In this document: positions 1-61,381 of the stretch, in pieces | Numbering within the stretch: the first letter of the stretch is position 1 | Layout of the letters: every line of letters starts with the position of its first letter | From: Pseudomonadota bacterium | Lineage (GTDB): Bacteria; Myxococcota; JACRCW01; JAFGSX01 | DNA: 64,000 nucleotides | Assembly (NCBI GenBank): GCA_043821645.1 | Contig: JBDRCO010000108.1 | Coordinates: forward strand, 33,161 to 97,160 | Reading direction: 5' to 3' | Notes under the pieces: generated by a model | Told to the model about the DNA's origin: nothing | Database searches by the model: none | What the model saw: the letters and a program-made list of their open reading frames with translations, nothing else | Translations under genes and position numbers: made by a program

Positions 1-175
<175 letters not shown>

Positions 176-180
176 TTGTT

Positions 181-3903: not shown

Positions 3904-4054
3904 AGCGCACCTGACGATCGCCTTCCCGTCCCACCCCGCCGACGCGCCTGCCAGAGCACTCTTCCTCGCTATGTAGCTGACGGACCGCTTGGTTCGGGCC
4001 ACGGGCGGAACGGGAGCGCTTCTCGGAAGGCTGTGTGCGCAGGAGGTGAACACC

Positions 4055-29961: not shown

Positions 29962-30816
29962 GTGACCGAGTTCTTGCATGCCCTGTTCGCCTTTCCGACG
30001 GCCATCTACTCGGGCCTGCTCGGCATTGCGGTCCTGTACTGGCTGATGGTGATCGTCGGCGCCGTGGACATCGACCTGTTCGGCTCCGGCGCCGAGGGTG
30101 CGCTGGAGGGTGTGACCGAGGGCGCCCTCGAGGGTGTCGCCGAAGGTGCCGCCGAGGGCGTGGCCGAAGGTGTCGCCGAGGGCGTGGCCGAAGGTGTCGC
30201 CGAGGGCGTGGCCGAAGGTGCCGCCGAGGGCGTGGCCGAAGGCGCTGCGGAGGGGGTGACCGAGGGCGCGGCCGAGGGTGCCGGTGAAGGTGCCACCGAA
30301 GGGGGTGGCGAGAGCGCCATGGCCGAGATCCTGGGCATGCTTGGCCTGAGGCGAGCACCGGTCACGGTTGTCTACAGTCTATTCTCGCTCACCGGCTGGG
30401 CGCTGTGCATGGCGGGCTCGCTGGTGCTCGAACCCTGGATCGGCGGCTGGATTCCGAACTGGCTGTATGGAACAGCGGTGCTTGCCCTGAGTGTGCCCGT
30501 GGCCCTGATCGCCACCTCGGTGGGGATACGACCGCTGGCCCCCATGTTCGTGCACGAGACCCAGCGCGGGCACTTCGCCCTGGTGGGCAAGAGCTGCATC
30601 ATCACCACCGGCCGGGTCGACTCGACCTTCGGACAGGCCAAGATAGAGGAGCGCGGCAACAACCTGCTCGTCCAGGTGCGCGCGCCGGCAGGAAACAGGC
30701 TGCACAAGAACGTGGAAGCACTGATCGTGGACTATGACCCGGAGCACGATGCATACCTGGTCGAGCCCATGCAGCAGCTGCTCGAGGAAGGGGCTCGCGG
30801 CCCCTCGACGACCTAG
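29962..30816 (+). CDS. NfeD-like membrane protein (N-terminal TMs, (A/V)EG(A/V) repeat linker, C-terminal OB-fold) that partners the downstream flotillin
   Basis: 2-3 TM helices and a C-terminal 'GKSCIITTGRVDSTFGQAKIEERGNNLLVQVRAP...' beta-barrel typical of short NfeD proteins. Gene order NfeD then SPFH is the canonical pairing. Confidence 0.55.
   Translation: MTEFLHALFAFPTAIYSGLLGIAVLYWLMVIVGAVDIDLFGSGAEGALEGVTEGALEGVAEGAAEGVAEGVAEGVAEGVAEGVAEGAAEGVAEGAAEGVTEGAAEGAGEGATEGGGESAMAEILGMLGLRRAPVTVVYSLFSLTGWALCMAGSLVLEPWIGGWIPNWLYGTAVLALSVPVALIATSVGIRPLAPMFVHETQRGHFALVGKSCIITTGRVDSTFGQAKIEERGNNLLVQVRAPAGNRLHKNVEALIVDYDPEHDAYLVEPMQQLLEEGARGPSTT
30090..30310 (+). repeat. In-frame 12-bp tandem repeat (~17 units of gccgagggcgtg/gccgaaggtgtc) encoding (A/V/T)EG(A/V) x17 inside the NfeD-like gene
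   Basis: Directly visible in both DNA and protein ('EGALEGVTEGALEGVAEGAAEGVAEGVAEGVAEGVAEGVAEGAAEG...'). Confidence 0.7.
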
Positions 30817-33122: not shown

Positions 33123-33173
33123 GCCGCGCGGGGCCGCAGGAAGCCGCGGATCTACTGACGCGCGAGAGGTGAC

Positions 33174-45382: not shown

Positions 45383-47038
45383 CTAGAGCGCTCTGCGGTG
45401 TGAACGGCGGCGCAACACCCACAAGGCAAGCACGCCGAGGATGGCCTCCAGAACTGGACCCCGCCCGGCCAGCCCACAGCCACAACCCGGGCTCACTGTC
45501 TCGAAGGGTTCTGCCGCATCCTGGGGTGTCCAGGCTGCAGCATCCGCCACAACCTGCACCACATCGGTCGAAGTTCGCTCGAGACCGATTCCCGCGTCGA
45601 GGGGTGCACTGGCATCGAACTGCGCCGCAGCGTCGGGCGTCGTGGCGCTGCCATCCACAGCCAGCACAGCGTCGCCCGGATCGGCTATGTCGGCGGCGGT
45701 CGCTGCATCGGAGCGGATCGCGCTGTCGGGGATGCCGGCGTCCGCGCCCCCGCCGCAGCTCGCCGAACCTGGCTTGACGATGGTGAGTGTGTCGAGGAGT
45801 TCCACGTTGGAATCGGCACAGCCGAAGTTCTGGCACCGTGTGGCCCAGGTCTCCATGGTGAGGGTTCCGTCCGCGATCTGGAAGTTCACGAAGTGATGAC
45901 GACCCGAGCATCCTGCACGGGTCCCGCCGACGTCGCCGAAGCACACACTGAAGCTGCCGATCTCCATCGTGTAAGCACCGGCGCCACCCGTGGTGATGTG
46001 GACGGTGCCATCCGGGTTGGGTTCACCACGGGTGAGATCCGTGCCCTGCACCGCCGCGGCAAAGCGCTCGTAGTAGTGATTGTGGCCCGTGAGCACGAAG
46101 TCCACGTGGTGGGCATCCAGCAAGGGCAACAGGACCTCGTTGGCGCCAGCCTCGTTGGGAGGATGGCTGAGGCCACCGCCACCTCCCGTGAAAGCTGGCG
46201 CATGAAAACTGACGATCTTCCAGGTCGCATCACTGTTCTGAGTCAACACCTGATCGAGCCACTCGGCCTGCTGCGCGAAGGCGCGCGAATCGGTGGTACT
46301 GCCACCCCTGAAGCTGTGTGTCGACAGCACGGCGAACACCGCATTGCGGTAGCGCACGACGTAGAAGTCCTCGGTGCTCGAGCTGGTGTTGCGCGGCAGG
46401 TAGAAGATCTTGTTGAAGTTGGCGCCGTCTCCCTCGACGCTGTCCGTGTCGTGGTTGCCGATGACGGGGAAAATGGGGATCTCCTTGCCGACCAGTTCCG
46501 TGCTGTCCAGGTAGTCGACCCACTGCGCTTCATCCTCACCATCCATCACCAGATCCCCCGTGTTGATGATCAGGGCAGGCCCGGTATCTGCGGCCTCGAC
46601 CAGGATCTCCGGAAAATTGGAGCTCACCCCCGGATGTCCACCGGTGCCGAACTGGGTGCGGTCGTCTCCCATGGCGACGAAGCTCCACGCTGCGCAGGGG
46701 TCGCTACCGGAGGTGGCAAAGGTGGCATCATCGCTCCACTCACTGCCGTCGCCGACGCTGTAGTGATAGGTCGTCCCGGCACTGAGACCGGTCAAGGTGA
46801 CGCCGTGAATATACCCGATGTCCTGGGCAAGGCTCGGTGCCGACCCGGTCTGCTCGAGACCATAACTTGCACTGGTGCCATAGCGAACCACAGAGTCCAC
46901 GAGGTCCGGCGTGGTCCAGGCGATGCCCATGGACGTGCGCGGATCGTCGACCACCGAGACGCGGAGTTGACTCGGAGCCGCCAGGACCCGGGTGGTGAGG
47001 AGCAGCGCGAGGGCAATCCAGAACAGGCGTGGGTGCAC
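45383..47038 (-). CDS. Secreted metallophosphoesterase (purple-acid-phosphatase-like) with a C-terminal MYXO-CTERM-like sorting tail
   Basis: Calcineurin-like motifs 'GDDRT', 'INTGDLV', 'GNHD', 'LTGHNHYYERF'. Signal peptide after a GTG start (VHPRLFWIALALLLTTRVLA). C-terminus '...PGCGCGLAGRGPVLEAILGVLALWVLRRRS' is a Cys pair, a hydrophobic helix and basic residues. Confidence 0.65.
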   Translation of the reverse strand: MHPRLFWIALALLLTTRVLAAPSQLRVSVVDDPRTSMGIAWTTPDLVDSVVRYGTSASYGLEQTGSAPSLAQDIGYIHGVTLTGLSAGTTYHYSVGDGSEWSDDATFATSGSDPCAAWSFVAMGDDRTQFGTGGHPGVSSNFPEILVEAADTGPALIINTGDLVMDGEDEAQWVDYLDSTELVGKEIPIFPVIGNHDTDSVEGDGANFNKIFYLPRNTSSSTEDFYVVRYRNAVFAVLSTHSFRGGSTTDSRAFAQQAEWLDQVLTQNSDATWKIVSFHAPAFTGGGGGLSHPPNEAGANEVLLPLLDAHHVDFVLTGHNHYYERFAAAVQGTDLTRGEPNPDGTVHITTGGAGAYTMEIGSFSVCFGDVGGTRAGCSGRHHFVNFQIADGTLTMETWATRCQNFGCADSNVELLDTLTIVKPGSASCGGGADAGIPDSAIRSDAATAADIADPGDAVLAVDGSATTPDAAAQFDASAPLDAGIGLERTSTDVVQVVADAAAWTPQDAAEPFETVSPGCGCGLAGRGPVLEAILGVLALWVLRRRSHRRAL

Positions 47039-47145
47039 GATGGACTCCTTGGCTGTCGCCCATTGTAGCGATCGGCCCGAGATCCGGCCAGGACCGCACG
47101 TGCCCGGACAGGGAGGAACAGCACCGGCGCGGGTCGGGGGCAGGC

Positions 47146-48234
47146 TCACAGGCCGGACAGCTCGATGAGCTTGCCGTCCAGCAGGCGCTCGATGATGGCC
47201 AGGAACTCGACCTCGGAGATCGGGCTGACCTGCATGATCTGGTTGAGGCTCCGCTCGCCGTCCACGCGAGACAGCACGTAGCGCTCCTTGGCAGTGAACT
47301 CGCTGCGCGTGGTCACGCTGCGATCGACCTTGAGGCGCGGAATCTGGCCACGGTCGAGAGTGCGGCGGTCGACCTGTGTCGCCACATGCTGCGCGGTGAT
47401 GCCCACCGTCTCGATGGCCTCGACGTCGTGGCTATCGTGCTCAAGCATGGCCTGGGCGCTGCTGAATGCCGCGCTGTAGTCTTCCCTGGCCATGGCGTCC
47501 TGCATGGCCTGACGCATGGCACCACCCTCCGAATCGTTTGGCGGGAACACCGCGATGTGACCCCGCTGGTGCAGGTCGTAGAGGCGTGCATACACGTGAA
47601 ACTCGAGCGCCCGAAGCTCGAGCAACAAGTCGCCGATGGTCTTGCCCTGCTCGAGGAGCTGCAGCACGTAGTTCTCGGCACTGGTCACCGTTGCGGGACG
47701 TGACTGTACCTCGAAGCGCATGTCGCCCGAGGGGAACACCGCCCGCATCTCATCCCAGATACGACGCCGCGACTGTGCCTCGCTGTGCACCTCGGCCAGG
47801 CTGACGGGGATGACGAGGTCGAGCTCACGCCGACCCAGCTCCTCGAGATCGAAGCGCAGCTCGCCCATCTTCCATTCCATGGTGTCGAGCAGGGACTCGC
47901 GCACCTTGAAGCTGAGCGCGCGCGACAAGTGTTCCTCGGTGAGCTGGCCGACCATGATGAGGATTCGCCCGAGGGGGATCTGGGTCTCCTTCTGCGTGGC
48001 GAAGGCCTTCTCGAGCTGTTCCTCGGTGATGTAGCCGAAGTTGATGAGGTGCTGTCCGAGGTACTCGCGGGTATCACTCGACGCGCCCTGCAGCACCAGC
48101 CCGGCCCGCACCACGAAGGACCGCTCGACGTTGCCGCGGCAAAAGACAAGGGTTCCATTGCGATTGCGATTTGCCAGCCAGGCGGCCAGATCCTCGACGG
48201 GCATCACCTCGATCGAACCGCCAATGCTTGGCAT
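47146..48234 (-). CDS. DUF4388 (PATAN-like receiver) domain protein
   Basis: N-terminus 'GSIEVMPVEDLAAWLANRNRNGTLVF' matches the DUF4388 signature recalled from myxobacterial proteins. Remainder unassigned. Confidence 0.4.
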   Translation of the reverse strand: MPSIGGSIEVMPVEDLAAWLANRNRNGTLVFCRGNVERSFVVRAGLVLQGASSDTREYLGQHLINFGYITEEQLEKAFATQKETQIPLGRILIMVGQLTEEHLSRALSFKVRESLLDTMEWKMGELRFDLEELGRRELDLVIPVSLAEVHSEAQSRRRIWDEMRAVFPSGDMRFEVQSRPATVTSAENYVLQLLEQGKTIGDLLLELRALEFHVYARLYDLHQRGHIAVFPPNDSEGGAMRQAMQDAMAREDYSAAFSSAQAMLEHDSHDVEAIETVGITAQHVATQVDRRTLDRGQIPRLKVDRSVTTRSEFTAKERYVLSRVDGERSLNQIMQVSPISEVEFLAIIERLLDGKLIELSGL

Positions 48235-48524
48235 CGCTCCTCCGCGCAGGTTGTCCGGGGGCAGCCCCGATCTCGCCTTGCTCAGCGAGGGCAGCCTGTG
48301 TGGCTGGCCTGCCTCGCGATCGCCAGGGTATCTATCGCGCCGGCTCCACCCACCCGACTGCGGCAGAGAACTCCGCGGGCGATTGCACGGCAGCGCTCCG
48401 AGGGCTGGCCCGAGCCTTGATATCTCCCCTGGTCCTGCCTCATGACAGGGCCGTTACTTGATCGGTGTCCTTGCGTTGGTACATTAACGCCCGCGCCCTT
48501 GCCACGCCAACAACAGGCTCCGCC

Positions 48525-49133
48525 ATGAATTCCATGCCCGCCTCCGTTGCCACCTCCGCCACTCCGTCCAGCAAGGCGGCCCACCCGGTCGTCAAGGTCA
48601 GCTTCGTCGTGATGGCGCTGCTGCTGCTGGCGGGCCTGGTCGCCCTCAAGGTGCGCGAGTATGTGCGCTACCTTGAATTCAGCACCCAGGCTGTCATGGA
48701 CCCCCTGCCCCTGGACAGGATGGCGCCAGGGTTCTCGCTCCCGCCCGGCCCCAGCGGTGCCCCCATCCAGCTCGAGGCGCTGCGCGATCAGTACGTGCTG
48801 GTGCACTTCTGGGCCACCTGGTGCCCGCCTTGCCGCGAGGAGCTGCGCACGCTTGAATACCTGGCGCGAGGGCGGAAAGACACTCTACGTGTTCTTGCCA
48901 TCACCGTCGATGACGATTGGAGCGAGGTCCAGCGCTTCTTTGGCAACCAGAGTCCAACCTTTGCGCTGGCCTGGGACAGGCAGAGAGAGACTGCCGAGGC
49001 TTACGGCACCCAGAAGTTTCCCGAGACCTACCTCGTGGATCCTCAGGGCAAGCTGGTGGCCAAGTTCATGGGCGCCCGCGACTGGAACAGCAAGGCCGCC
49101 TATCGTTACCTCGACGAGATGATCCAGCGCTGA
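48525..49133 (+). CDS. TlpA-family thiol:disulfide oxidoreductase (redoxin), membrane-anchored
   Basis: TM anchor, then 'VLVHFWATWCPPCREELRTL' (WCxxC thioredoxin fold). Confidence 0.7.
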   Translation: MNSMPASVATSATPSSKAAHPVVKVSFVVMALLLLAGLVALKVREYVRYLEFSTQAVMDPLPLDRMAPGFSLPPGPSGAPIQLEALRDQYVLVHFWATWCPPCREELRTLEYLARGRKDTLRVLAITVDDDWSEVQRFFGNQSPTFALAWDRQRETAEAYGTQKFPETYLVDPQGKLVAKFMGARDWNSKAAYRYLDEMIQR

Positions 49134-49190
49134 GCCTGGCATCCCGGCGCAACCGCTGGTCATCGCGACCACGACTCGAATTCGGGTCCG

Positions 49191-49403
49191 TCAAACGCCC
49201 AGAAAACTGTTCAGCTCGGCGACGATGCGTGCGCCATCGAGCTGCTTTTCGGCAATGAGCTCGCCCAGGCTACACCAGGCGGGCTCACCACACTTGATGC
49301 AGACGACACCCCGCTCGAGCAAGAAACCACTGGCGCGTGGAAAGCGCGCCACGATGTCCTCGACCGATTCTTCCAGGGTGATTGGCACGGCAGCATCGCT
49401 CAT
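49191..49403 (-). CDS. DUF1858-like small redox-associated protein
   Basis: ~70-aa 'MSDAAVPITLEESVEDIVARFPRASGFLLERGVVCIKCGEPAWCSLGELIAEKQL...' with a CxxC...C motif pattern. Confidence 0.4.
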   Translation of the reverse strand: MSDAAVPITLEESVEDIVARFPRASGFLLERGVVCIKCGEPAWCSLGELIAEKQLDGARIVAELNSFLGV

Positions 49404-49458
49404 GTCGAACCTCGCTCCGGGGCATGGGCTGAACCCAGCGCCCACTCGGTCGCCATCC

Positions 49459-50586
49459 TCAGCTACAGGTCTCAGCGGACCCCGCAGCGGTGTCCCCGCA
49501 GCCATCCCGCTGATCCACTCCCTCGACGTCGACCGGGTCCACACCTGCGCAGGTGGCGGCTTGCAGGCTGGCAGCCAGGCCTCGCAGCTCATCGAGACCA
49601 CGCTCTCCGACAAGGCGAGCGCGCTCCTGTCCAAGGTCGTCGATCAACAGCACGGTGGGGACGGCACGGACGCCAAGGGCGGCCTTGAGCCAGCGATTGT
49701 CGTCCCGCGACACATCGATGCGGTGCACCTCGACGTGGTGGGCGGTGCAGTCCGCCTGCAAGGTATCCACGGCCTTCTGCATGCGCTGGCAGACCGGACA
49801 GCCCTCCTCGACGAGTTCGAGCAGGCGGGGCTGCGACAGGGGCGCTCCTGGCAAGGGAGCGATGCGGAGCCCATCCTCGGTGGTGGCCAGCTGCGTGGCC
49901 GCTGGCGCCGCGAGCAGGGCGCGAACCGGCCCGACGCCCAGGAACAGGGCCAGGGCCAGCATGGCGACCCCCGTCACCCGCTGCAGGGTCTCCAGGCGAC
50001 GCATGGCCTTGCGCAGAAGCGGCACGGCGCGGTCGGCAAACACAGCCACCACGATGAGCGGCGCGGCGAGACCCGCACTGTAGGCTGCAAGCAGGCCAGC
50101 TCCCTGCAAGGCACTCGATTGCAGAGCGGCCACGCTGAGCACAGAAGCCAGGACGGGGCCTGCGCAGGGCGTCCACCCAAATGCGAACACCACACCGAAA
50201 CCGAAGCCGCCGAGAGGCCCCTGGATGCGGCGGGGGCCGTCGAGGCGCAGATCCCTATCCAGCCAGGGAAGAGGCAGCACACCAAGGAATTTGAGCCCAA
50301 ACAGGGCGATGAGAGTCGCGCCAACCAGCATCAGGAGATCGCGATGCTGACCGAGCACCTGCCCCAGGCTCGACGCTCCCAGCCCGAAGATCGTGAACAC
50401 CAGCGTGAAGCCCAGGCTGAAGGCGAGCGTCCTGACGACGAGCTGTCCTCGCGCGCGTCCTGTCGCAGCTGCGGGCAGCGCACCGCCCAGCAACATCGTC
50501 AGGTAAACCGGCACCAGGGGCAGCACGCAGGGCGTGGCCAGGGTGGCGGTACCGGCTCCGAAGGCGGCAAGAAGAGACAGCGGCAT
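49459..50586 (-). CDS. CcdA/DsbD-family transmembrane thiol-reductant transporter fused to a C-terminal thioredoxin-like domain
   Basis: Two conserved Cys in TM regions ('ATPCVLPLVP' and 'GWTPCAGPVL'), 6+ TM helices, and C-terminal 'CPVCQRM' thioredoxin motif. Confidence 0.7.
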   Translation of the reverse strand: MPLSLLAAFGAGTATLATPCVLPLVPVYLTMLLGGALPAAATGRARGQLVVRTLAFSLGFTLVFTIFGLGASSLGQVLGQHRDLLMLVGATLIALFGLKFLGVLPLPWLDRDLRLDGPRRIQGPLGGFGFGVVFAFGWTPCAGPVLASVLSVAALQSSALQGAGLLAAYSAGLAAPLIVVAVFADRAVPLLRKAMRRLETLQRVTGVAMLALALFLGVGPVRALLAAPAATQLATTEDGLRIAPLPGAPLSQPRLLELVEEGCPVCQRMQKAVDTLQADCTAHHVEVHRIDVSRDDNRWLKAALGVRAVPTVLLIDDLGQERARLVGERGLDELRGLAASLQAATCAGVDPVDVEGVDQRDGCGDTAAGSAETCS

Positions 50587-50593
50587 GGGGTCC

Positions 50594-50980
50594 TCAGGTG
50601 GCGCTGGCGACAGGTTCCGTGAGCAGCTCGTGGTCCAGGAACTCGCGGTGGTACAGGCTGCCGCGGAACCCGACGATGCGCTCGACTTCTTGACCCTGGT
50701 CAAAGTACAGCACGGTGGGCGTCCCACGCACGCCCAGGCGCGCGAGGGTATGGGGCGCGCGGGCGCCATGGAGCTCGACCACCTTGAGCCGGCCCTGATA
50801 GTCCCGTGCGATGTCCATCACGATGGGCTCCAGCTGCTTGCAGGGGGCGCAGCCATCACTCCACACGTCGACCATCACCGGAAGGTCGGATCGCAGCACC
50901 TCGCGGTCGAAATTGCTGTCGTCGATGGCCACCGGCTGCACACGCGTCCGGGGCTTGAGAAGTTGCTTCAGCCAGTTCAT
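50594..50980 (-). CDS. Thioredoxin
   Basis: 'VWSDGCAPCKQLEP', a CxxC thioredoxin fold of 128 aa. Confidence 0.75.
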   Translation of the reverse strand: MNWLKQLLKPRTRVQPVAIDDSNFDREVLRSDLPVMVDVWSDGCAPCKQLEPIVMDIARDYQGRLKVVELHGARAPHTLARLGVRGTPTVLYFDQGQEVERIVGFRGSLYHREFLDHELLTEPVASAT

Positions 50981-51224
50981 GTGTGCTCCTTGTCCCTTAT
51001 CGGAGCCAGGGCCTGCTGTTTGGATTCATGGGCACGCCAGCCTGGGCCAAGGCCGCCCTCCCGGGTGGACAACACGGCACGAACAGAGGCGCTGTTCCTG
51101 GATCTGTGCACGGGAAAGCCACCTCTGCCCGGTGCCGCGGAGCACCCTGCAGCAGCTGCGGGCCTCGCAGGTCCTCGATCACAAGGGTGTGCATGCCTTG
51201 CACAACGCATCCCGGGCATCGAAG

Positions 51225-52151
51225 ATGCGTGCCGCAACGGAGCCAGCAGTGCCAGAACGCCCGAACACCCTTCGCTTCACCGTCGAGCCCGGCGAGACGG
51301 AGCTCCGCCTGGACCAGCTCCTGGCCGCGCGCAACCCGGACCTGTCACGGCGCAAGGCGCGGGTGCTGATCGACATCGGCGGCGTGTTCGTGGACAAGCA
51401 GCGGGTCAAGGTGGCGAGCCGCACACTGCGGGCCGGGCAACACGTCGAGGCCGTGCTGGGCCAGGCGCTCGAGCGCGCGACCAAGAAAGTGGGGCAAGAA
51501 GCACGACGTGACGACGAGAAAAACCTACCGCGCTATCACGTCGTGTTCGCGGATCGCGACATCGTCGTCGTGGACAAGCCAGCGGGCCTGCTCACCGCCC
51601 CCACCCCCGAGAGCGACCGCAACAACCTCGCTGTGCTGCTGGCCCGGCGCTACCACGTCGAGCGCGTGCACGTGGTGCACCGCCTGGACCTGATGACCAG
51701 TGGACTGCTGGTCTTTGCTCGCACCGCCCGCGCCAATCGCGTCCTCGGCGAGCGCTTTCGCGTACACGACCTCACCCGCGAGTACCTGGCGGTGCTACAT
51801 GGCCGCCTGGCCAAGGAGACTGTCACGGTGGACGCGCCCGTCGGTGGCAAGTCCGCGCGCACCCACTTCACGATCGAGACGCGGCTTGGGGATCGGGCGA
51901 CCGTGGTGCGGGCCCGCCTCGAGACAGGGCGCACCCATCAGATCCGCCTGCATGTCCGCACGCTGGGCCTGCACGTCCTGGGTGATCCTCAGTACGGAAG
52001 GCGAACTCGCCAGGACCCCCCGCGCATGGCCCTGCACGCGACCCGGCTGGGCTTCCCGCACCCGCGCAGCGATGAGCCCATGCAGTTCGAGAGCCCCTGG
52101 CCCGAGGACCTCGCCACCTGGCTTGACGGCCTGCGGGCGAATTCTGTGTGA
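51225..52151 (+). CDS. RluA-family 23S rRNA/tRNA pseudouridine synthase
   Basis: S4-like N-domain, catalytic 'HRLDLMTSGLLVFAR' (HRLD..TSG), 'THQIRLH'. Confidence 0.8.
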   Translation: MRAATEPAVPERPNTLRFTVEPGETELRLDQLLAARNPDLSRRKARVLIDIGGVFVDKQRVKVASRTLRAGQHVEAVLGQALERATKKVGQEARRDDEKNLPRYHVVFADRDIVVVDKPAGLLTAPTPESDRNNLAVLLARRYHVERVHVVHRLDLMTSGLLVFARTARANRVLGERFRVHDLTREYLAVLHGRLAKETVTVDAPVGGKSARTHFTIETRLGDRATVVRARLETGRTHQIRLHVRTLGLHVLGDPQYGRRTRQDPPRMALHATRLGFPHPRSDEPMQFESPWPEDLATWLDGLRANSV

Positions 52152-52216
52152 ACGCAGGACCGCGGGCTCCGGCCCGTCAAACATCGTCGACAACACGCTG
52201 CGTCTGCGGGGGTGGC

Positions 52217-54271
<2,055 letters not shown>

Positions 54272-54506
54272 GAGCACTCCAGCAGCGAGGACACTCACGG
54301 TCAGCAGCCTTACCGCGCCACGCCCCGCTGTGGTCAAGAACAACACCGCACCGACGTAGGGTCCACGGCGCGCTGCGGCAAGGTGAAAAGATCCGAGGCT
54401 GACTGCTTCGAGGTGGTTGGCTTGCGCCGTGGCGTCGTGGATAATGCCCGCTGGCGGTCGCGCCTTCCGTGATCTCGGACCGAGACGGCCACCACCGGAG
54501 GTACTC

Positions 54507-56015
54507 ATGGCCCGCTGGGCGGGAGAGATGGAGTTCGAGTTCGTCGACGGCGGCGAGGAGGAGGGCGGCGCCTTCGTCGCCACCAGCAAGGTCGTGCAGT
54601 TCCTGCGCAACCACCTGGCCCGGGGTGAGGTCGAGCAGGCCGCCCGGCTGTACGAGGAAACCGGCGCCAGCGTCACCGCAGACCTCCTGGCCGAGGCCAA
54701 GTCCGCGTCGTCGACCACCCAGAAGAACCTGGCTGAGATGTTCACCCTGGCCCGCGACTTCGCAAGTGCGGCCAAGGTGTTCGAGCAGGCCAAGGATTTC
54801 ACACAGGCTGCCAGAGCCTACGAGCAGGCCAGTGACTACGCCTCCGCAGCCCGGTGCTTCCAGAAAGTTGGTGAAGACGGACGTGCGGCTGCCGCGCTGG
54901 AACGCGCGGGTCAGCTCGACGCCGCCTTGGAGCTCTATCGCAAGGCGGGGCCGTCGGACGCCCTGGCCGAGTGCCTGGCCCGGCAGCGCCGCTACATGGA
55001 GGCCGCCAGGGTCTACGAGCACACCAGCAACACGCGCGCCGAAGTCGAGATGCTGCGCATGGTGCCCATCGATGACCCGAACCGCGTGCCGGCCGTGGAG
55101 CGTCTGGCCGAACTGCTCGAGCGCTTTGGCCGCATGGACCAGGCCGTGCAGCTCATCGTCGACACCGTGCGCCAGTGTGAGGCTGCCCGGGCCTACGCAC
55201 CGCTCTACGACAGGTTGGCGCGCTTGCTCGAGGGGCTCGGCCGCTTCGATCAAGCGCAGATGGTGCGCGCTCGCATCCAGGACCAGCTCGGCGGCACCGT
55301 CATGGGTGAGCGCAAGGCACTCCCCGTGCAGGGCGTGGACACCGGACACGACCCCTTGACTCCAGGTCCTGCGGTCCTCCCCAACGCGATGCGGGAGGCG
55401 CCACCCCCCATTGCAGGTATCCCCGTGACGACGGTGCTGGGCAGTGCGCCGCCGGTGCAGGCCATGAACGCCATGCCCGCGCCGGTACAGGTGATCCTGC
55501 CCCCGGCCCCGACCACGAGCAGCGACCCCTTCAGCTCGCTCATCGATCCCTTCGAGAGTCGTGGCGCCGGTGCCGCGCCCGCTGTCGACGCCTATGCCCA
55601 GCTCAAGGCCATCCCCATCTTCGGTGAGCTGGCCATGCAGGACATGAAGGACCTCTACCGCGCCTCGCAGGAGGTCATGTACGCGTCGGGCGAACCCATC
55701 ATCGAGCAGGGGGTGCGTGGCAACGGCCTGACCGTGATCCTGGCGGGCGAGGTGCAGGTTCAGCGGGTCGACGACGGCGTTGCCAAGGCCCTGGCGACGC
55801 TTGGCGCAGGTGCCTACATCGGCGAGATGTCCCTGGTAGACGACGCCCCGACCTCGGCCCGGGTCGTGGCGAACGCACCGGTGCGAGGTCTGTACATCGC
55901 TCGGGAACGGTTTGACCAGTACCTGTACAGCCACGAGACTGCGGCACTGCGCATCTTTCGACTGTTCACCAAGACCCTGGCCGATCGCCTGCGCCAGTCC
56001 AACGTGCGACGCTAG
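54507..56015 (+). CDS. TPR-like repeat protein with C-terminal cyclic-nucleotide-binding (CAP_ED) domain
   Basis: N-terminal Ala-rich helical repeats. C-terminal '...FGELAMQDMKDLYRASQEVMYASGEPIIEQGVRGNGLTVILAGEV...GEMSLVDDAPTSARVVA' cNMP-binding beta-barrel pattern (G-E...A phosphate-binding cassette). Confidence 0.55.
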   Translation: MARWAGEMEFEFVDGGEEEGGAFVATSKVVQFLRNHLARGEVEQAARLYEETGASVTADLLAEAKSASSTTQKNLAEMFTLARDFASAAKVFEQAKDFTQAARAYEQASDYASAARCFQKVGEDGRAAAALERAGQLDAALELYRKAGPSDALAECLARQRRYMEAARVYEHTSNTRAEVEMLRMVPIDDPNRVPAVERLAELLERFGRMDQAVQLIVDTVRQCEAARAYAPLYDRLARLLEGLGRFDQAQMVRARIQDQLGGTVMGERKALPVQGVDTGHDPLTPGPAVLPNAMREAPPPIAGIPVTTVLGSAPPVQAMNAMPAPVQVILPPAPTTSSDPFSSLIDPFESRGAGAAPAVDAYAQLKAIPIFGELAMQDMKDLYRASQEVMYASGEPIIEQGVRGNGLTVILAGEVQVQRVDDGVAKALATLGAGAYIGEMSLVDDAPTSARVVANAPVRGLYIARERFDQYLYSHETAALRIFRLFTKTLADRLRQSNVRR

Positions 56016-56071
56016 CCACCTCGCCGCGGCAGGAGGAGGTCCGGACCCTCGACGTCGCGCGCGACCGGAGT

Positions 56072-58132
56072 TTGCGAATGAGCCAAGCACCACCGCGTGT
56101 CCCGGCACCCCTCATCCCGCCTTCCGACGGCACGCCGCCTCCGGTGACCGGGACCATCCAGACCCAGACCACGCTGCTCGACGGCATTGCCCTGTTCCAG
56201 CCTCTGCCAGCCCAGCTCAAACAACAGTTGCAGGCCCAGCTTACCCGCCGCTCGCTCAAGTCCGGCGAGGTGCTGTTCAACGCCGGTGACGTCGGCGATG
56301 CCATGTACCTGATCCACTCGGGCATGGTGTCGGTGTACCTCAGCGACCGCAACCTGGGTCTCACCTATGAGCTGGCCAAGCTCGGTGCCGGACAGGCCTT
56401 TGGCGAGATGGCCCTGGTCACGGGTGAGCCGCGCTCGGCCAGCGTGCGCGCCATCGACGATGCCAACCTGCTGCAGCTGTCGCGAGACGTGTTCTTCAAG
56501 CTGGTCAATGCGGCACCGCAGGTTGCCCTGACCATCGCCCAGGTGCTAGCCAAGCGTCTGGATCAGCACAACAAGGCGCAAGGCATCGAGTTCGGCGCGC
56601 TGCGCGACATCAAGTTCGATCCCGCGGCCCTCGAGCTGATCCCGGCCCCCCTGATCAAGCGCCACCGGATGGTGCCCGTCGCCGTCGCCGGGGGCATCGT
56701 CACAGTCGCCACGCCGGACCCCGGCAATCGGCTGGGCGTCGATGACCTGCGCCGACTCCTGCGGGGCATGGAGATCAAGCTGCTCGCGGTGAGCGCCGCG
56801 GACTTCGACGCCTTCGTGACCAAGCATGTGGCCACCGCGGCGGAGCGTCCCGTGGCGGCGGTCTCGCGTGGCGACTTCACCCAGCTGGCGCGCCAGATCG
56901 TTTATCAGGGCAGCCCGGGGAGCGAACGCGATGACAGCGCCCGGCTCAAGCAGGTGGCGTCAGGGCAAGACGTTGTGGACCTGCTGTCCGCCATTCTGGC
57001 CGAGGGCATCGAGCGCGGCGCCTCGGACATCCATCTCGAGCCCGACCGCAATCGACTGGTCGTGCGCTACCGCATCGATGGTCGGCTCAGCTTCCGGGAC
57101 GGCACCATCCCGTCCAGCGTGCATCTGCCCCTGATGTCCCGGCTCAAGATCCTGGCCTCCCTCGACATTGCCGAAAAGCGCCTGCCGCAGGACGGCCGGA
57201 TCTCGCTCGACATGGGACCCAAGAGTTACGACCTGCGCATGGCCACGGTGAACACCAAGTACGGAGAGAAGGCCACGCTGCGAATTCTCGACAGCTCGCA
57301 GCTCGAGCAGAACCTGGCCAGCCTGGTGCTCGCCGACAAGGTGAGCCAGGTCGTGCGCAAGCTGTTCTACCGCCCCAATGGCCTGGTGCTGGTCACCGGT
57401 CCGACCGGCAGCGGCAAGACCACCACCCTGTACGCGGCCCTCAAGGAGCGGCACAACCCCGAGCTCTCGATCTGTACCATCGAGGATCCCATCGAGTATG
57501 ACGTGCCGGGCATCACCCAGGTGCAGGTCAACGACGGCATCAACCTGGGCTTCGCCGAGGTCATGCGCACCTTCCTGCGCCAGGACCCCGACGTCATCCT
57601 GGTCGGAGAGACCCGCGACGCCACCACGGCCAAGCTCGCCTGCAACGCGGCGCTCACCGGGCACCTCGTGCTGTCGTCGTTCCACACCAACGATGCCATC
57701 AGCGCCCTGATGCGTCTGCGTGAGATGGAGATCGAGCCCTTTGTCCTCGCCGGCGCCTTGCTCGGGGTGATCAACCAGCGTCTGGTGCGCCGCATCTGTC
57801 CGAACTGCCGGGTCGAGTCGAGCTACTCCGAGGTCATCAAGCAGAACCTGGCCCGCGCCGGCGTCGCCCTCGAGACCTCGGCCAAGTTGTACAAGGGTGC
57901 TGGTTGCCAGGCCTGCAATGGCGAGGGCTACAAGGGCCGCATCGGAGTGTTCGAGCTGCTCGTCGTCAGCGCCAACGTGCGCGAGGCCATCGCCCAGGAG
58001 GGCAGCACCGCCGCCATCCAGCTCGCAGCCCAGGACGGGAGCTTCGTGTCCCTGGCGCGCTACTCGACGTTCCTGCTGCAAGAGGGGCTGACGGTGCCCA
58101 GCGAGGTGCTACGCATCTTGCCCAAGGAGTGA
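56072..58132 (+). CDS. GspE/PilB-type secretion ATPase with an N-terminal cyclic-nucleotide-binding domain (cNMP-T2SSE_N-ATPase fusion)
   Basis: CAP_ED ('FGEMALVTGEPRSASVRA'), T2SSE_N ('RMVPVAVAGGIVTVATPDP'), Walker A 'LVLVTGPTGSGKTTTLYA', Asp box, Walker B 'DPDVILVGETRD', His box 'LTGHLVLSSFHTNDA', tetra-Cys 'CPNC...CQAC'. Confidence 0.8.
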   Translation: MRMSQAPPRVPAPLIPPSDGTPPPVTGTIQTQTTLLDGIALFQPLPAQLKQQLQAQLTRRSLKSGEVLFNAGDVGDAMYLIHSGMVSVYLSDRNLGLTYELAKLGAGQAFGEMALVTGEPRSASVRAIDDANLLQLSRDVFFKLVNAAPQVALTIAQVLAKRLDQHNKAQGIEFGALRDIKFDPAALELIPAPLIKRHRMVPVAVAGGIVTVATPDPGNRLGVDDLRRLLRGMEIKLLAVSAADFDAFVTKHVATAAERPVAAVSRGDFTQLARQIVYQGSPGSERDDSARLKQVASGQDVVDLLSAILAEGIERGASDIHLEPDRNRLVVRYRIDGRLSFRDGTIPSSVHLPLMSRLKILASLDIAEKRLPQDGRISLDMGPKSYDLRMATVNTKYGEKATLRILDSSQLEQNLASLVLADKVSQVVRKLFYRPNGLVLVTGPTGSGKTTTLYAALKERHNPELSICTIEDPIEYDVPGITQVQVNDGINLGFAEVMRTFLRQDPDVILVGETRDATTAKLACNAALTGHLVLSSFHTNDAISALMRLREMEIEPFVLAGALLGVINQRLVRRICPNCRVESSYSEVIKQNLARAGVALETSAKLYKGAGCQACNGEGYKGRIGVFELLVVSANVREAIAQEGSTAAIQLAAQDGSFVSLARYSTFLLQEGLTVPSEVLRILPKE

Positions 58133-58139
58133 GCCCTGG

Positions 58140-60290
58140 ATGAAGGATGCTGCCGTACGGCCGGGGGGTAACCATCGGCAGGTTGCCGAGTTTGTCGTCG
58201 TCACGATCTGCCTTCTGATCCTTGCGACCCTCATCTTCGGCCAGCTTCTCCACCCAGGCCAGGCACCCTACTCGCCTCATTCAGATTTCCTTCACCAGCA
58301 CCTTTCCATCAAGGATTCGCTCTACCGTGCCGTGCAGGCAGGACACGGGCCTCCGCTCTGGCGCAGCGACCAATTCTCCGGGGTCACCGCCTGGGCCAAC
58401 CCGCAGGCGCAATACACCTATCCATTTCACCTGTTGTTCTGGTTCCTGCCTCCCATCAACGCCGTGGGCCCGACCCTGTGGCTGCATTTTGTACTGGCGG
58501 GCCTGGCCATGTACGTGCTCGCTCTCAGCCTGCAGCGAGGTCGCGCTGGCCGTGTGTTCATGGCCCTTGCAGGCCTGGTCAACTACCGGTTCATCCTCGC
58601 CGCAGGCGCGGGCTGGCTCCCGGTGCTGTCGACGATGACGATGGTTCCCTTTGTTCTTGCCTCCCTGATCTGGAACCTGCGTGTGGCCACGTGGCGCTCG
58701 ACGCTCGTGCTGACCCTGGCTACCAGCCTGGCGCTGGTCACCGGTGGAATGCAGCTGTGCTACTACGCTGCCCTGTTCTCCGTCGTCATCGTGGGAGTGG
58801 AGCTTGCTGCGCGGAGACGTGGTGCGCATTCTGAGGGTGTCCGTTCCATCCTGCTCCAGCTTGCCGTCGCCAGCGCGCTGTCGATCGGACTCAGTGCGCA
58901 CGTCTGGCTTCCCATCGCCGGCGAAGCGCCCCTGCTCTCGCGTGGAGAACTGAGCTACAGCTACTTTCTCTCTGGTGTTGCACTCCGGCCGACGGACTGG
59001 TCGAGCCTGCTCTCTCCATTCCTGCTCACCGGCGAGCTGGAGACCGGAGCTGGTTCGCCCTGGGAGCGCTGCGCCTACTTCGGCCTCGTCCCGTTCTTGC
59101 TGGCTGCGCTCGGTGCGATCCGGGCGCCGAAACAGCGCGCGGTTCTGGTCCTGCTGTGCCTCACCCTCCTGTCCCTCCTGCTCACCCTCGACAGCCCGCT
59201 GCTGCGGGGCCTGTTCGAGCTGGCGCCGGGATTCCGGCTGTTCCGGGGGCCGGGGCGATTTCTTCTCTTCACGGGTATCTTCGGCATCGCACTCGCCGGC
59301 TTCGGCGCGGACGAACTCCTGCGCTGGCTTCAGCGCCGGTCGAGGCTCCTGACCACTTCTGTGGTGGCCTGCCTGGCTCTGCTCATGCTCGCCGAGGGAG
59401 CGGTGGCCTCACGTGAGCTCATCACCATGCGTCCCTGCGAGGAGGTCCTTCCCGACCCCGCCTACCGACGCTACCTGGAGCAGGACCCAGATCTGTTTCG
59501 CGTCGCGACGATTCTTCGCGACACCATCAACTACGGCTGGGCTTCACCGTTCGGATTGCAGCTGATTCACGGCGGAGACGCCATCAACTATTCGTACTAC
59601 AAACGCTACTTCAATCGGATACAGCAGGCCCACACACCGCCGGAGGCCAGGCAACCCTGGAACGACCTGCACGGCATCAGTAATGGCAGTTTGCTCGACG
59701 CCCTCGGCGTGCGCTACCTGGTGACCCCGTTCGAGATTCCGTCGCCACCGCCCAACCTTGAGCTGGCGGCGACATTTCACGAGCAAGCTGTGTTTCGCTA
59801 TTTCACGGGTCTGGAGCAGGCCACGCTGTGGATCTACCGCAACCTGGGAGCCCTGCCTCGTGCATACCTGGTCGAGCAGGTGATCCATGCGGATACCGAG
59901 GACGAGGCCCTCGAGCACATCACCGGTTTTCAGCCCGACATCCTGGCCGTTGTCGAGGGACATGCCGCGCCTGGCACTTCGACGGCCCAGCAAGGTGACC
60001 GGGCCGAGATCGTCTCCTGGGAGCCAGGGCAACTCGAGGTCGCCGTCCGCACGCACCTGCGCCGTTTTCTCGTGGTGAGCGAGATCTGGCACCCGGGCTG
60101 GACGGCCGAGCTCGACGGGCGGGACATCGCCCTCGCAAAGACCGACGTCGCCCTGCTCGGGGCCTGGATGCCGGAGGGCGAGCACAGCTTTCGGCTGACA
60201 TTTCGACCGCGATACTGGCACGCTGCATGGGTCGTGAATGGGCTGGCTGGTGTACTCTTCTTGCTCACTCTGTGGCGGACAAGGCGATGA
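58140..60290 (+). CDS. YfhO-family polytopic membrane protein (probable lipid-linked glycosyl transferase or polymerase)
   Basis: 716 aa with more than 12 TM helices in the N-terminal two-thirds and a C-terminal periplasmic beta domain. This architecture is typical of YfhO, and it is paired with a GT2 gene. Confidence 0.55.
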   Translation: MKDAAVRPGGNHRQVAEFVVVTICLLILATLIFGQLLHPGQAPYSPHSDFLHQHLSIKDSLYRAVQAGHGPPLWRSDQFSGVTAWANPQAQYTYPFHLLFWFLPPINAVGPTLWLHFVLAGLAMYVLALSLQRGRAGRVFMALAGLVNYRFILAAGAGWLPVLSTMTMVPFVLASLIWNLRVATWRSTLVLTLATSLALVTGGMQLCYYAALFSVVIVGVELAARRRGAHSEGVRSILLQLAVASALSIGLSAHVWLPIAGEAPLLSRGELSYSYFLSGVALRPTDWSSLLSPFLLTGELETGAGSPWERCAYFGLVPFLLAALGAIRAPKQRAVLVLLCLTLLSLLLTLDSPLLRGLFELAPGFRLFRGPGRFLLFTGIFGIALAGFGADELLRWLQRRSRLLTTSVVACLALLMLAEGAVASRELITMRPCEEVLPDPAYRRYLEQDPDLFRVATILRDTINYGWASPFGLQLIHGGDAINYSYYKRYFNRIQQAHTPPEARQPWNDLHGISNGSLLDALGVRYLVTPFEIPSPPPNLELAATFHEQAVFRYFTGLEQATLWIYRNLGALPRAYLVEQVIHADTEDEALEHITGFQPDILAVVEGHAAPGTSTAQQGDRAEIVSWEPGQLEVAVRTHLRRFLVVSEIWHPGWTAELDGRDIALAKTDVALLGAWMPEGEHSFRLTFRPRYWHAAWVVNGLAGVLFLLTLWRTRR

Positions 60291-61381
60291 ACGGGCAACT
60301 CAGCGTCGGTGAGTTAGAGGGAAGCAGCACGGGGAAACCCCTGCTCTCGGTCATCGTGCCTTTTTTCAACGAAGAGGCGCTCGCCGAGCCCATGATCGAT
60401 GCCCTGGTGGAGGTGCTGTCACCTCAAGCCTATCGTTTTGAAATCGTGTGCATCGATGATGGTTCGGAGGACGGCACCGGTGCCGTGATCGATCGTCGGG
60501 CGAGCGCTCATTCCGCACTGGTCCCGGTGCACCTGTCGCGGCGCTTTGGAAAGGAGGCTGCCCTGCTGGCCGGCTTGCAGATCGCGCAGGGGGACGCCGT
60601 CGTTCTCCTGGACGGCGACCTGCAACACCCGCCGTCCCTCATCCCTTCGCTGGTCGAAGCGTGGATGGGAGGCGTCGATGTGGTACATGCCGTGAAGCGC
60701 CGGCATGGGCGGGAGTCCCTGGTGTACCGCCAGGGAGCGACGATCTTCTACAAGCTACTCGGGCGCGCCGTCGGACGGTCCCTGAGCCACACCTCGGACT
60801 ACAAGCTCCTGGACCGCCAGGTTGTCGAGGCACTGCTGGTCTGCGGGGAGCGGTCGCGCTTCTTGCGAGGGCTGGTGGCCTGGGTGGGATTCACCACGGC
60901 CGAGGTTCTCTTCGATGTCGATCCCCGCCGCTCCGGCCATAGCAAATGGTCACTCCTGCAACTCGCAAAGTACGCCTTCAATGCGCTGCTGAGCTTCACC
61001 TCGTTACCCCTGCGCCTCATCGCCTGGATGGGTTTCGCCACCATCGTCGTTGGGATGCTGTTGGCCGTGCAGACTCTCTACAATTATTTCGCCGGCATCG
61101 CGGTGGGTGGATTCACGACTGTCATCCTGCTCCAGATTCTTCTCTGCGGGCTGATCCTGGCGAGCCTCGGGGTCATGAGCTTCTACCAGGCGCAGATGTA
61201 CGAGGAGATCAAAGCGCGGCCGGTCTACATTGTTCGGCGGCAGACCCGGTCGCACGCGCTTGGGGCCACGACCCCAGACAAACGAACCCTTGTTGACACG
61301 ACAGCAGACCTGGCATCGGACAGACCCGACATGGCCGGGGGCAAGGGTCCCCACACACCAGCAGGTGGCGACAACGCGTGA
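60287..61381 (+). CDS. Family-2 glycosyltransferase (polyprenyl-phosphate sugar transferase, GtrB/ArnC/DPM1-like) with C-terminal TM helices
   Basis: 'LSVIVPFFNEE', 'CIDDGSEDGT', 'DGDLQHPP' (DxD). Two C-terminal TM helices. ATGA overlap with the YfhO stop. Confidence 0.8.
   Translation: MNGQLSVGELEGSSTGKPLLSVIVPFFNEEALAEPMIDALVEVLSPQAYRFEIVCIDDGSEDGTGAVIDRRASAHSALVPVHLSRRFGKEAALLAGLQIAQGDAVVLLDGDLQHPPSLIPSLVEAWMGGVDVVHAVKRRHGRESLVYRQGATIFYKLLGRAVGRSLSHTSDYKLLDRQVVEALLVCGERSRFLRGLVAWVGFTTAEVLFDVDPRRSGHSKWSLLQLAKYAFNALLSFTSLPLRLIAWMGFATIVVGMLLAVQTLYNYFAGIAVGGFTTVILLQILLCGLILASLGVMSFYQAQMYEEIKARPVYIVRRQTRSHALGATTPDKRTLVDTTADLASDRPDMAGGKGPHTPAGGDNA

Follow-up and report, generated by a model that had tools for sequence, protein, structure and literature searches.

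A PilB/GspE-class ATPase fused to a cyclic-nucleotide-binding domain, and its helical-repeat partner, as a candidate signaling-motor module

The ATPase and its partner

The DNA analyzed here is a 64-kb stretch (the window) of a 98-kb contig (JBDRCO010000108.1) from a bacterium of GTDB lineage Myxococcota, with a G+C content of ~67%. It carries, side by side on the forward strand, two genes whose products each contain a domain of the cyclic-nucleotide-binding (CNB) fold. The downstream gene, with 56 kb of the window before it and ~5.9 kb after it, encodes a traffic ATPase of the PilB/GspE class. The upstream gene encodes a protein with a tetratricopeptide repeat (TPR)-like solenoid, referred to here as the partner. 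Both open reading frames (ORFs) are clearly marked by G+C at codon positions, and their third-position G+C (GC3) is 0.85 for the partner and 0.88 for the ATPase. The features of the ATPase gene are as follows.

56078-58132, +: CNB-fused PilB/GspE-type ATPase, 684 aa plus stop (Pfam, structure, alignment); alternative TTG start at 56072
56174-56578, +: CNB domain, residues 33-167, a beta-barrel plus a long C-helix (147-167) (Pfam, 75.9 bits; PDB matches; structure model)
56399-56452, +: canonical phosphate-binding cassette FGEMALVTGEPRSASVRA (position in sequence; 118-member alignment)
56585-56842, +: N1E/MshEN_C-like subdomain, residues 170-255 (MshEN, 50.8 bits; PilB alignment; 4PHT fold match)
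56930-57307, +: N2E domain, residues 285-410 (structure model and fold match to the PilF/PilB core)
57314-58129, +: C-terminal ATPase domain, residues 413-684 (motifs, alignment, fold match)
57398-57424, +: Walker A, GPTGSGKTT, residues 441-449 (located in sequence)
57482-57499, +: Asp box, EDPIEY, residues 469-474 (located in sequence)
57593-57619, +: Walker B, VILVGETRD, residues 506-514 (located in sequence)
57656-57694, +: His box, TGHLVLSSFHTND, residues 527-539 (located in sequence)
57797-57808 and 57905-57916, +: tetra-Cys motif, CPNC (574-577) and CQAC (610-613) (located in sequence)

The longest ORF of the ATPase gene opens at a TTG (56072; 686 aa). The ATG at 56078 has a GGAG 8 nt upstream, is the start of an identical 684-aa protein at NCBI (P0001), and is most likely the start of the gene. 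Residues are numbered on the 684-aa protein throughout, except that Pfam scores were obtained with the 686-aa ORF and the residue numbers given with them are larger by 2. The cNMP_binding family matched residues 59-146 at 75.9 bits (cut-off, 27.5), MshEN/T2SSE_N matched residues 171-256 at 50.8 bits, and T2SSE (PF00437) matched residues 299-681 at 374.8 bits (cut-off, 24.9), covering positions 6-370 of the 370-position profile. The Pfam scores of both the ATPase and the partner are far above chance. An initial annotation, made from the sequence alone, had placed a cyclic-nucleotide domain N-terminal of T2SSE_N and the ATPase core; these matches bear that arrangement out, and the N-terminal domain scores well above the family threshold. 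The same annotation had called the catalytic boxes and the tetra-Cys motif intact. This was confirmed in an alignment of 118 homologues, reaching down to 39% identity, in which the key residues of the boxes and C574, C577, C610, and C613 are invariant. The tetra-Cys zinc motif marks extension-type motors as opposed to PilT-type motors and is common to GspE and PilB.

An AlphaFold 2 (AF2) model of the ATPase, built from the 118-sequence alignment, had a predicted local distance difference test score (pLDDT) of 89.7. The model consists of the CNB barrel with a C-helix running directly into the N1E-like domain, a flexible linker, N2E, and the C-terminal ATPase domain. Its core superposed on Thermus PilF and Geobacter PilB (5OIU, 5TSH) with a target-normalised TM-score of 0.93 and a root mean square deviation (rmsd) of 2.0 A. 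The sequence matches in the PDB were led by Geobacter PilB (355 bits), Thermus PilF (349 bits), Myxococcus xanthus PilB (347 bits), and Vibrio GspE (339 bits), while residues ~30-165 matched the CNB domains of PKG, PKA-R, CRP, and Bd1971 with E values of ~1e-14 to 2e-23.

The cassette of the ATPase CNB domain reads FGEMAL...PRSA. Across the 118 homologues, G109, E110, and R119 are invariant and A121 is conserved in at least 90%, and this conservation spans Myxococcota-like, Syntrophus, and Terriglobales metagenome-assembled genomes (MAGs). In CRP and PKA, the cyclic phosphate is held by the Gly, Glu, Arg, and Ala residues of the cassette. A role of the Arg in phosphate binding has been described (PMC10959531). 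The invariance of the phosphate-holding residues is the strongest in silico argument available that the CNB domain of the ATPase still binds a cyclic nucleotide; cAMP and cGMP cannot be told apart as ligand from the sequence. The gating by cyclic nucleoside monophosphates (cNMPs) put forward in the initial annotation is thus supported by the conserved cassette, whereas ligand binding and gating themselves are what we infer from it.

The best alignment with Geobacter PilB pairs residues 167-681 of the ATPase with PilB residues 79-584, so the CNB domain stands in place of the first ~78 residues of PilB. In MshE, the corresponding N-terminal region is a four-helix MshEN_N unit that binds cyclic di-GMP (c-di-GMP) (PMC5013675, PMC11656802). 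The NCBIfam model of the 53-residue c-di-GMP motif (NF053729) had no match in the ATPase at E <= 0.001. In the same search, it matched a 362-aa DUF4388 (PATAN-like) protein encoded at 47146-48234 on the - strand (56.9 bits against a cut-off of 38; residues 59-109), which shows that the model works on this genome. The c-di-GMP receptor motif absent from the ATPase therefore occurs 8 kb upstream, on a separate protein. A regular expression for the relaxed MshEN motif (PMC5013675) matched neither the ATPase nor the DUF4388 protein meant as its positive control; because the control failed, the negative on the ATPase carries no weight, and the profile result is used in its place. On this alignment, a predicted cNMP sensor occupies the site at which the relatives of the ATPase carry a c-di-GMP sensor.

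Among curated subfamily models, the best NCBIfam match of the ATPase was the GspE equivalog TIGR02533 (473.3 bits; cut-off, 630.25), and scores below cut-off were also obtained with the PilB equivalog TIGR02538 (454.9 bits; cut-off, 675.65) and the TfpB model (415 bits; cut-off, 850). By its sequence, the ATPase is classed as an extension-type PilB/GspE-class motor and as an orthologue of no curated subfamily.

The partner gene and its features are as follows.

54507-56015, +: partner gene, 502 aa (Pfam; the start agrees with the NCBI annotation of the identical protein P0121)
54579-55289, +: TPR-like solenoid of 17 helices, residues 25-261 (AF2 pLDDT ~93-98 over 31-260; helices H25-38 to H247-261; TPR_7, TPR_14, and TPR_12 matches)
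55290-55586, +: predicted disordered Pro-rich linker, residues 262-360 (AF2 pLDDT 45-55; no secondary structure)
55587-56006, +: CNB-fold domain, residues 361-500 (cNMP_binding, 56.9 bits; Foldseek)
55818-55871, +: variant cassette IGEMSLVDDAPTSARVVA (Ser replaces the canonical Ala; Thr replaces the phosphate-binding Arg)
54417-54445, +: sigma-70-like promoter match TTGGCT-17-GATAAT between the divergently transcribed DUF255 and partner genes; weak evidence (1 site, against 0.6 expected in shuffles)

The partner matched TPR_7 (37.9 bits; cut-off, 27.9) and TPR_14 (25.2 bits; cut-off, 23.5), with matches to TPR_12, TPR_8, and TPR_2 below the Pfam cut-offs, and matched cNMP_binding at residues 391-473 (56.9 bits; cut-off, 27.5). 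A TPR-like protein ending in a cNMP-binding domain, as initially described, is therefore what lies upstream of the ATPase. The AF2 model of the partner had an overall pLDDT of 83.9, and Foldseek returned the CNB domains of CAP, PKG, and GlxR as the best matches of its C-terminal domain, at an rmsd of ~2 A.

The partner cassette reads G-E-M-S-L...P-T-S-A-R. Thr stands at the position of the phosphate-binding Arg in 9 of 9 aligned partner orthologues, most of which read PT-SAR, with the variants AT-SAR and LT-AAR. In an alignment of 89 homologues, which takes in proteins of cultured Stigmatella and Hyalangium and of a Myxococcaceae isolate, S442, T449, and S450 are conserved in at least 90% and A451 is invariant. 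The phosphate-binding Arg is thus missing from the partner cassette in all 9 orthologues and in at least 90% of the 89 homologues. The domain has a true CNB fold but, with the Arg-to-Thr change running through the whole family, is probably not a canonical cNMP binder. The substitution is itself conserved, which points to an altered function and not to decay. The description of the pair as two adjacent cyclic-nucleotide-binding proteins holds at the domain level, then, and fails for the partner at the residue that would contact the phosphate.

A Thr at the same cassette position is found in the trypanosome PKA regulatory subunit (TbPKAR; RBC-A, GELELMYQTPTVA), a protein that binds purine nucleosides but does not bind cAMP (PMC10959531, PMC6440977). 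The two cassettes are alike in having Thr where the phosphate-binding Arg is expected, but the partner has Ser in place of the ribose-contacting Glu of TbPKAR, and kingdom and context differ as well. The trypanosome protein is the one well-studied precedent for this Thr and, being an analogy, says nothing direct about the ligand of the partner. In the cultured Stigmatella sp. ncwal1 (L088, 10001-12494), two tandem 412-aa paralogues of the partner stand with no traffic ATPase nearby, which shows that the partner family can work without the motor.

Such departures raise the question of whether the CNB domain of the ATPase has likewise ceased to sense cAMP or cGMP and serves dimerization, scaffolding, or another ligand in a constitutively active PilB paralogue. 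CNB folds that bind other ligands or none are known, with the trypanosome PKA regulatory subunits that bind nucleosides as one case (PMC10959531, PMC6440977), and the adjacent partner has just such a divergent cassette. The cassette of the ATPase, in contrast, is canonical (G-E-M-A-L...P-R-S-A), its pattern of invariant G109, E110, and R119 and nearly fixed A121 is the one expected under selection for cyclic-phosphate binding, and the gene string at one related locus (L091, described below) includes a class III cyclase. We regard loss of sensing as very unlikely.

The gene family and its neighborhoods

The architecture cNMP_binding plus MshEN plus T2SSE was present in 118 of the best 120 protein clusters matched by the ATPase, the two exceptions being a fragment and a T2SSE-T2SSF fusion. 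One homologue of 1047 aa (P0073) carries T2SSE and T2SSF, the platform protein, in one chain and has no CNB domain. The named sources of the ATPase family are MAGs and metagenomes only (Deltaproteobacteria, Myxococcota, Syntrophus sp., and Terriglobales). Related loci were collected in part with a pattern derived from a 7-sequence alignment, G[QNE][AT][FVI]GEMAL, which fits CNB domains generally; family members made up 13 of the 80 loci that it returned (L008 to L020). A search of a representative library with the N-terminal 235 aa gave no clean family count: multi-CNB proteins dominated the top of the results, and ~25 single-stretch matches of 640 to 760 aa resembled family members. At one Acidobacteria MAG locus (L018, 9992-11988), a frameshift or an assembly error breaks the CNB-ATPase homologue into a 275-aa and a 389-aa ORF.

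A full-length partner homologue lies beside the ATPase in 12 of the 20 loci reached through the ATPase. It is immediately upstream in the window and in L001, L011 to L016, and L091; upstream with one ORF between in L008; and immediately downstream in L004 and L090. The pair is also present in L089, which was reached through the partner. When the match lists of the two proteins were compared manually, 29 entries agreed exactly in the length of their longest contig, indicating many more shared contigs. An all-against-all comparison of flanking ORFs from the related loci found no shared gene beyond the pair. In a Pfam scan of 75 neighbors from eight loci, no family occurred more than twice, and neither T2SSF nor a secretin was among the 25 families listed. 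Since no other neighbor is conserved around the pair, the conserved unit is these two genes, set in otherwise unrelated neighborhoods. These data establish the pair as a conserved module rather than a chance adjacency.

The initial annotation had reported no secretion or pilus machinery nearby, and this was upheld across the window. A Pfam scan of its ~47 ORFs, spanning all 64 kb, found no match to T2SSF, Secretin, PilM/N/O/P, or N_methyl, and six-frame scans with two patterns found no prepilin (class III signal) N terminus. No pilC, pilT, or pilin gene and no pilMNOPQ set lies beside the ATPase in the window, and the gene is not inside a type II secretion system (T2SS) or type IV pilus (T4P) locus there. 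Sixteen related loci, with flanks inspected up to 10 kb per side where the contigs permit, likewise had no T4P or T2SS locus around the gene, with the exception of L004. Neither the window nor the related loci examined gave a match to a gsp-type family. Standing apart from machinery, which the annotation had expressed by the term "orphan," is therefore a family trait across the related loci, although L004 links the module to T4P minor pilins and PilY1.

In L004 (13698-20837, +), whose ATPase is 43% identical to that of the window, six same-strand genes lie directly downstream of the ATPase-partner pair. Three of them encode prepilin-like N termini (RRAGFTLYEL, RQAGYTMVEV, and ESGYSLVEL, with N_methyl scores of 21.8, 27.3, and 20.0 bits), and the stricter of the two prepilin patterns matched twice at this locus. 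The others are a PilX_N-like gene (21.3 bits), a PilY1-like gene of 1127 aa (26.3 bits), and a 196-aa gene without a Pfam match. This is the only relative with adjacent minor-pilin/PilY1-like genes. We take the layout to be that of the FimU-PilVWX-PilY1 priming operon of type IVa pili.

This locus also bears on the idea that the ATPase is a cNMP-regulated GspE paralogue that drives a T2SS encoded elsewhere and not a pilus. The tetra-Cys motif, common to GspE and PilB, is compatible with that idea, and GspE is the best NCBIfam match at 473 bits, slightly above PilB at 455; that score, however, is under the GspE cut-off of 630, and the PDB sequence scores slightly favor PilB (355 versus 339 bits). 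Foldseek aligned ~497 columns of the model with the GspE-GspL complex 4PHT, an alignment that would cover N1E, the domain of GspE that binds GspL. Against this stand the absence of any gsp gene from every locus examined and the gene content of L004, the only machinery-linked locus, which has the PilX_N- and PilY1-like genes specific to type IVa pili and not GspH-K. We consider service to a T2SS unlikely.

A second locus suggests a source for the signal. In L091 (1518-6834, +), a HAMP-Guanylate_cyc class III cyclase, a bactofilin, the partner, and an ATPase 45% identical to that of the window follow one another with gaps of 17 to 86 nt. This string plausibly puts a cNMP source and a cytoskeletal scaffold into the same putative operon with the pair, and it is possible that L091 is a complete signal-to-motor operon.

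Other genes of the window

Upstream of the partner and divergent from it lies a DUF255 thioredoxin-domain gene, and beyond it are RluD-like, DsbD-like, and thioredoxin genes. The 861-aa DUF255 ORF (52217-54802) was called too long at the 5' end, where it runs over the partner on the opposite strand; its Pfam match starts at residue 200. "DUF255" matches in related loci were rejected as antisense shadow ORFs over the partner gene and represent no real conservation. The genes following the ATPase begin with these two.

58140-60290, +: YfhO-like GT-C membrane protein (Pfam, 55.8 bits), starting 7 nt past the ATPase stop
60227-61381, +: polyprenyl-phosphate family 2 glycosyltransferase (GT2) of the PgfS/ArnC type (233 bits, below cut-off)

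After the GT2 gene come a minus-strand gene without annotation and then plsX. The products of the YfhO-like and GT2 genes resemble a pair for extracytoplasmic glycosylation; the two genes were probably inserted locally and may be cotranscribed with the ATPase. As a conserved component of the system, they were ruled out by the absence of homologues in 17 related loci searched with BLAST and by a GC3 (0.77 for YfhO-like and 0.76 for GT2) lower than the 0.85 to 0.88 of the pair.

Their position, on the same strand with no convincing terminator between the genes, is nevertheless the ground for a different account, in which the motor was recruited outside filament assembly, either to glycosylation or polysaccharide handling with the YfhO-like and GT2 proteins or as a free-standing regulatory NTPase with its TPR partner. 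That the family sits in unrelated housekeeping contexts without machinery genes would suit this account too. By their GC3 and their absence from the 17 loci, however, the adjacency looks local and recent, and the ATPase strictly retains the N1E docking domain, zinc motif, and all catalytic boxes of filament-assembly motors. Such a recruitment seems improbable.

Several further features of the window were observed. Genes for thiol redox are concentrated at 48465-54802, 23414-24271, and 3989-5356; the set consists of AhpC/TSA-like, DsbD-like plus thioredoxin domain, thioredoxin, DUF255 thioredoxin-domain, and thioredoxin-TPR proteins and an MsrA-MsrB fusion. A large ATPase cluster at 30879-39017 (+) consists of a 747-aa weakly flotillin-like protein and, after it, one of 1947 aa that carries DUF3686 (672 bits), DUF7902, and AAA domains; a short ORF upstream of the flotillin-like gene (29962-30816) has a weak FliH-like match. 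At 12464-16265 (-), an OmpA-family protein is followed by two proteins of 739 and 294 aa that match nothing in Pfam. In NCBIfam, the former gave a very weak ZorA/MotA-like match (E = 7e-4); tentatively, this may be a stator-like or Zorya-like pair. The - strand at 45383-47149 encodes a 588-aa, apparently secreted protein with metallophosphatase-like motifs recognized by eye (...GNHD... and ...GHNHYYER...). The C terminus of this protein (GCGC, a hydrophobic helix, RRRS) resembles a MYXO-CTERM sorting tag, which would agree with an origin in Myxococcota even though the MAG carries the label "Pseudomonadota" at NCBI; the suspected tag had no NCBIfam match and was set aside. A tmRNA gene (Rfam RF00023, 88.7 bits) is clipped by the edge of the window, which retains its 3' part at positions 1-178 (+).

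A candidate cyclic-nucleotide-gated motor

Taken together, these results lead us to favor a reading in which the two genes form a conserved signaling-motor module and an extension-type motor, gated by a cNMP, serves a type IV pilus-like machine whose genes lie elsewhere in the genome; we hold this reading with slightly better than even confidence. A number of observations weigh against it. The cut-offs of the PilB and GspE equivalogs are both missed, and, because the two sub-cut-off scores are about equal (455 versus 473 bits), sequence leaves T4P versus T2SS undecided. No pilin, platform, secretin, or prepilin peptidase gene was found in the 56 kb upstream or 5.9 kb downstream of the gene. 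The pilin link (L004) and the cyclase link (L091) come from one locus each, and three of the L004 matches are below the gathering cut-off (N_methyl, 20.0 versus 21.2 bits; PilX_N, 21.3 versus 25.5; PilY1, 26.3 versus 28.1). The partner is absent at 8 of the 20 loci (L005, L007, L009, L017, L018, L019, L020, and L092), among them two of Acidobacteriota (L018 and L019) and one of Syntrophus (L092), and so is not obligatory for the motor. Finally, all ATPase family members seen are from MAGs or metagenomes, so the carriers are all uncultured.

The proposed mechanism is as follows. In a hexameric traffic ATPase of the PilB/GspE class, the four-helix MshEN_N unit for c-di-GMP would have been replaced by a canonical CNB domain, whose invariant G-E...R-S-A cassette would bind cAMP or cGMP. 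The C-helix of the CNB domain (147-167) runs on into the N1E-like domain (170-255); binding may shift this helix, and the shift could alter either docking on an inner-membrane platform of the PilM/PilC or GspL/GspF type or ATP cycling. In this way the second messenger would act as a post-translational switch of filament assembly, the role that c-di-GMP has in MshE and PilB by way of MshEN. The machine served, encoded elsewhere in the genome, would most likely be a type IVa pilus-like apparatus. The partner is most likely an adaptor or coregulator that binds the motor or positions it in the cell; its tether of ~100 aa, predicted to be disordered, would link the solenoid to an Arg-less CNB domain acting as a pseudoreceptor or as a sensor of something other than a cNMP.

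A more elaborate version, which we put forward as speculative and doubtful, is a two-input switch for filament assembly. Here the motor would read cAMP or cGMP, while the Arg-less CNB domain of the partner would read a noncyclic ligand (e.g., a nucleoside, as trypanosome PKA does) or pair with the CNB domain of the motor as a decoy. Extension would be gated post-translationally by the coincidence of both signals and by partner-directed localization. Some lineages, on the model of L091, would couple the switch to a dedicated cyclase and to a bactofilin scaffold.

The gated motor we favor has close counterparts among known systems. It has in common with PilB (Geobacter metallireducens 5TSG/6OLJ, Myxococcus xanthus PilB, and Thermus PilF) the N1E-like, N2E, and C-terminal ATPase domains, the four catalytic boxes, and the tetra-Cys zinc motif, at ~44% identity over the core and a target-normalised TM-score of 0.93. 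It differs in having a CNB domain of ~135 aa where PilB has its first ~78 residues (MshEN_N, the c-di-GMP site), in scoring 455 against the equivalog cut-off of 676, and in lying outside a pil cluster. With GspE/EpsE (1P9R, 4KSR, 4PHT), its top NCBIfam match, it shares the core fold, zinc motif, and N1E; unlike GspE, it scores below the 630 cut-off, has no gsp genes nearby, and carries the extra CNB domain. Vibrio cholerae MshE also places an N-terminal receptor for a nucleotide second messenger just before the MshEN_C/N1E region of a PilB/GspE-class motor (PMC5013675). The MshE receptor is built of two 24-residue helical motifs, whereas that of the motor described here is a beta-barrel CNB domain, predicted to receive a cyclic mononucleotide and unmatched by the c-di-GMP model. 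Bdellovibrio Bd1971 (6HQ2-6HQ7) resembles it in fusing an N-terminal CNB domain to an output enzyme (CNB match, E ~1e-15), but the output of Bd1971 is an EAL c-di-GMP phosphodiesterase and not a traffic ATPase.

For the partner, the nearest comparison is with SgmX and the PilZ-FimX cofactors, separate nonenzymatic proteins that control when and where an extension motor works (PMC7519303, PMC7668184, PMC8389850, PMC11656802). SgmX is rich in TPRs and stimulates T4P formation in M. xanthus (PMC7519303, PMC7668184). The partner resembles it as a helical-repeat protein genetically coupled to a motor, and by this analogy may contact the motor. It is unlike SgmX in its C-terminal Arg-less CNB domain and its much shorter length, and the two are likened by repeat type and not by sequence homology.

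The N-terminal domain is the site of c-di-GMP action in PilB and MshE (PMC11656802, PMC5013675). A review from 2024 on how PilB is regulated describes T4P and T2SS motors as controlled by c-di-GMP, through MshEN or PilZ/FimX cofactors, and describes cAMP as acting only transcriptionally, via Vfr (PMC11656802). A full-text literature search, with most subscription journals outside its reach, turned up no description of a PilB or GspE fused to a CNB domain. Proteins of this architecture can already be seen in public databases, labeled generically, for instance as "ATPase, T2SS/T4P/T4SS family" or "type IV pilus assembly protein PilB." What would be new is that a second-messenger-gated motor of the PilB/MshE class answers to a different messenger and has a dedicated partner. 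If this is true, the family would exercise direct post-translational gating of filament assembly by cAMP or cGMP, a new regulatory mode, and the natural domain swap at the c-di-GMP site would offer a clean system for studying N-terminal control of PilB-class hexamers. The partner, with its family-wide Arg-to-Thr cassette, is a candidate for a bacterial CNB domain retuned away from cyclic nucleotides.

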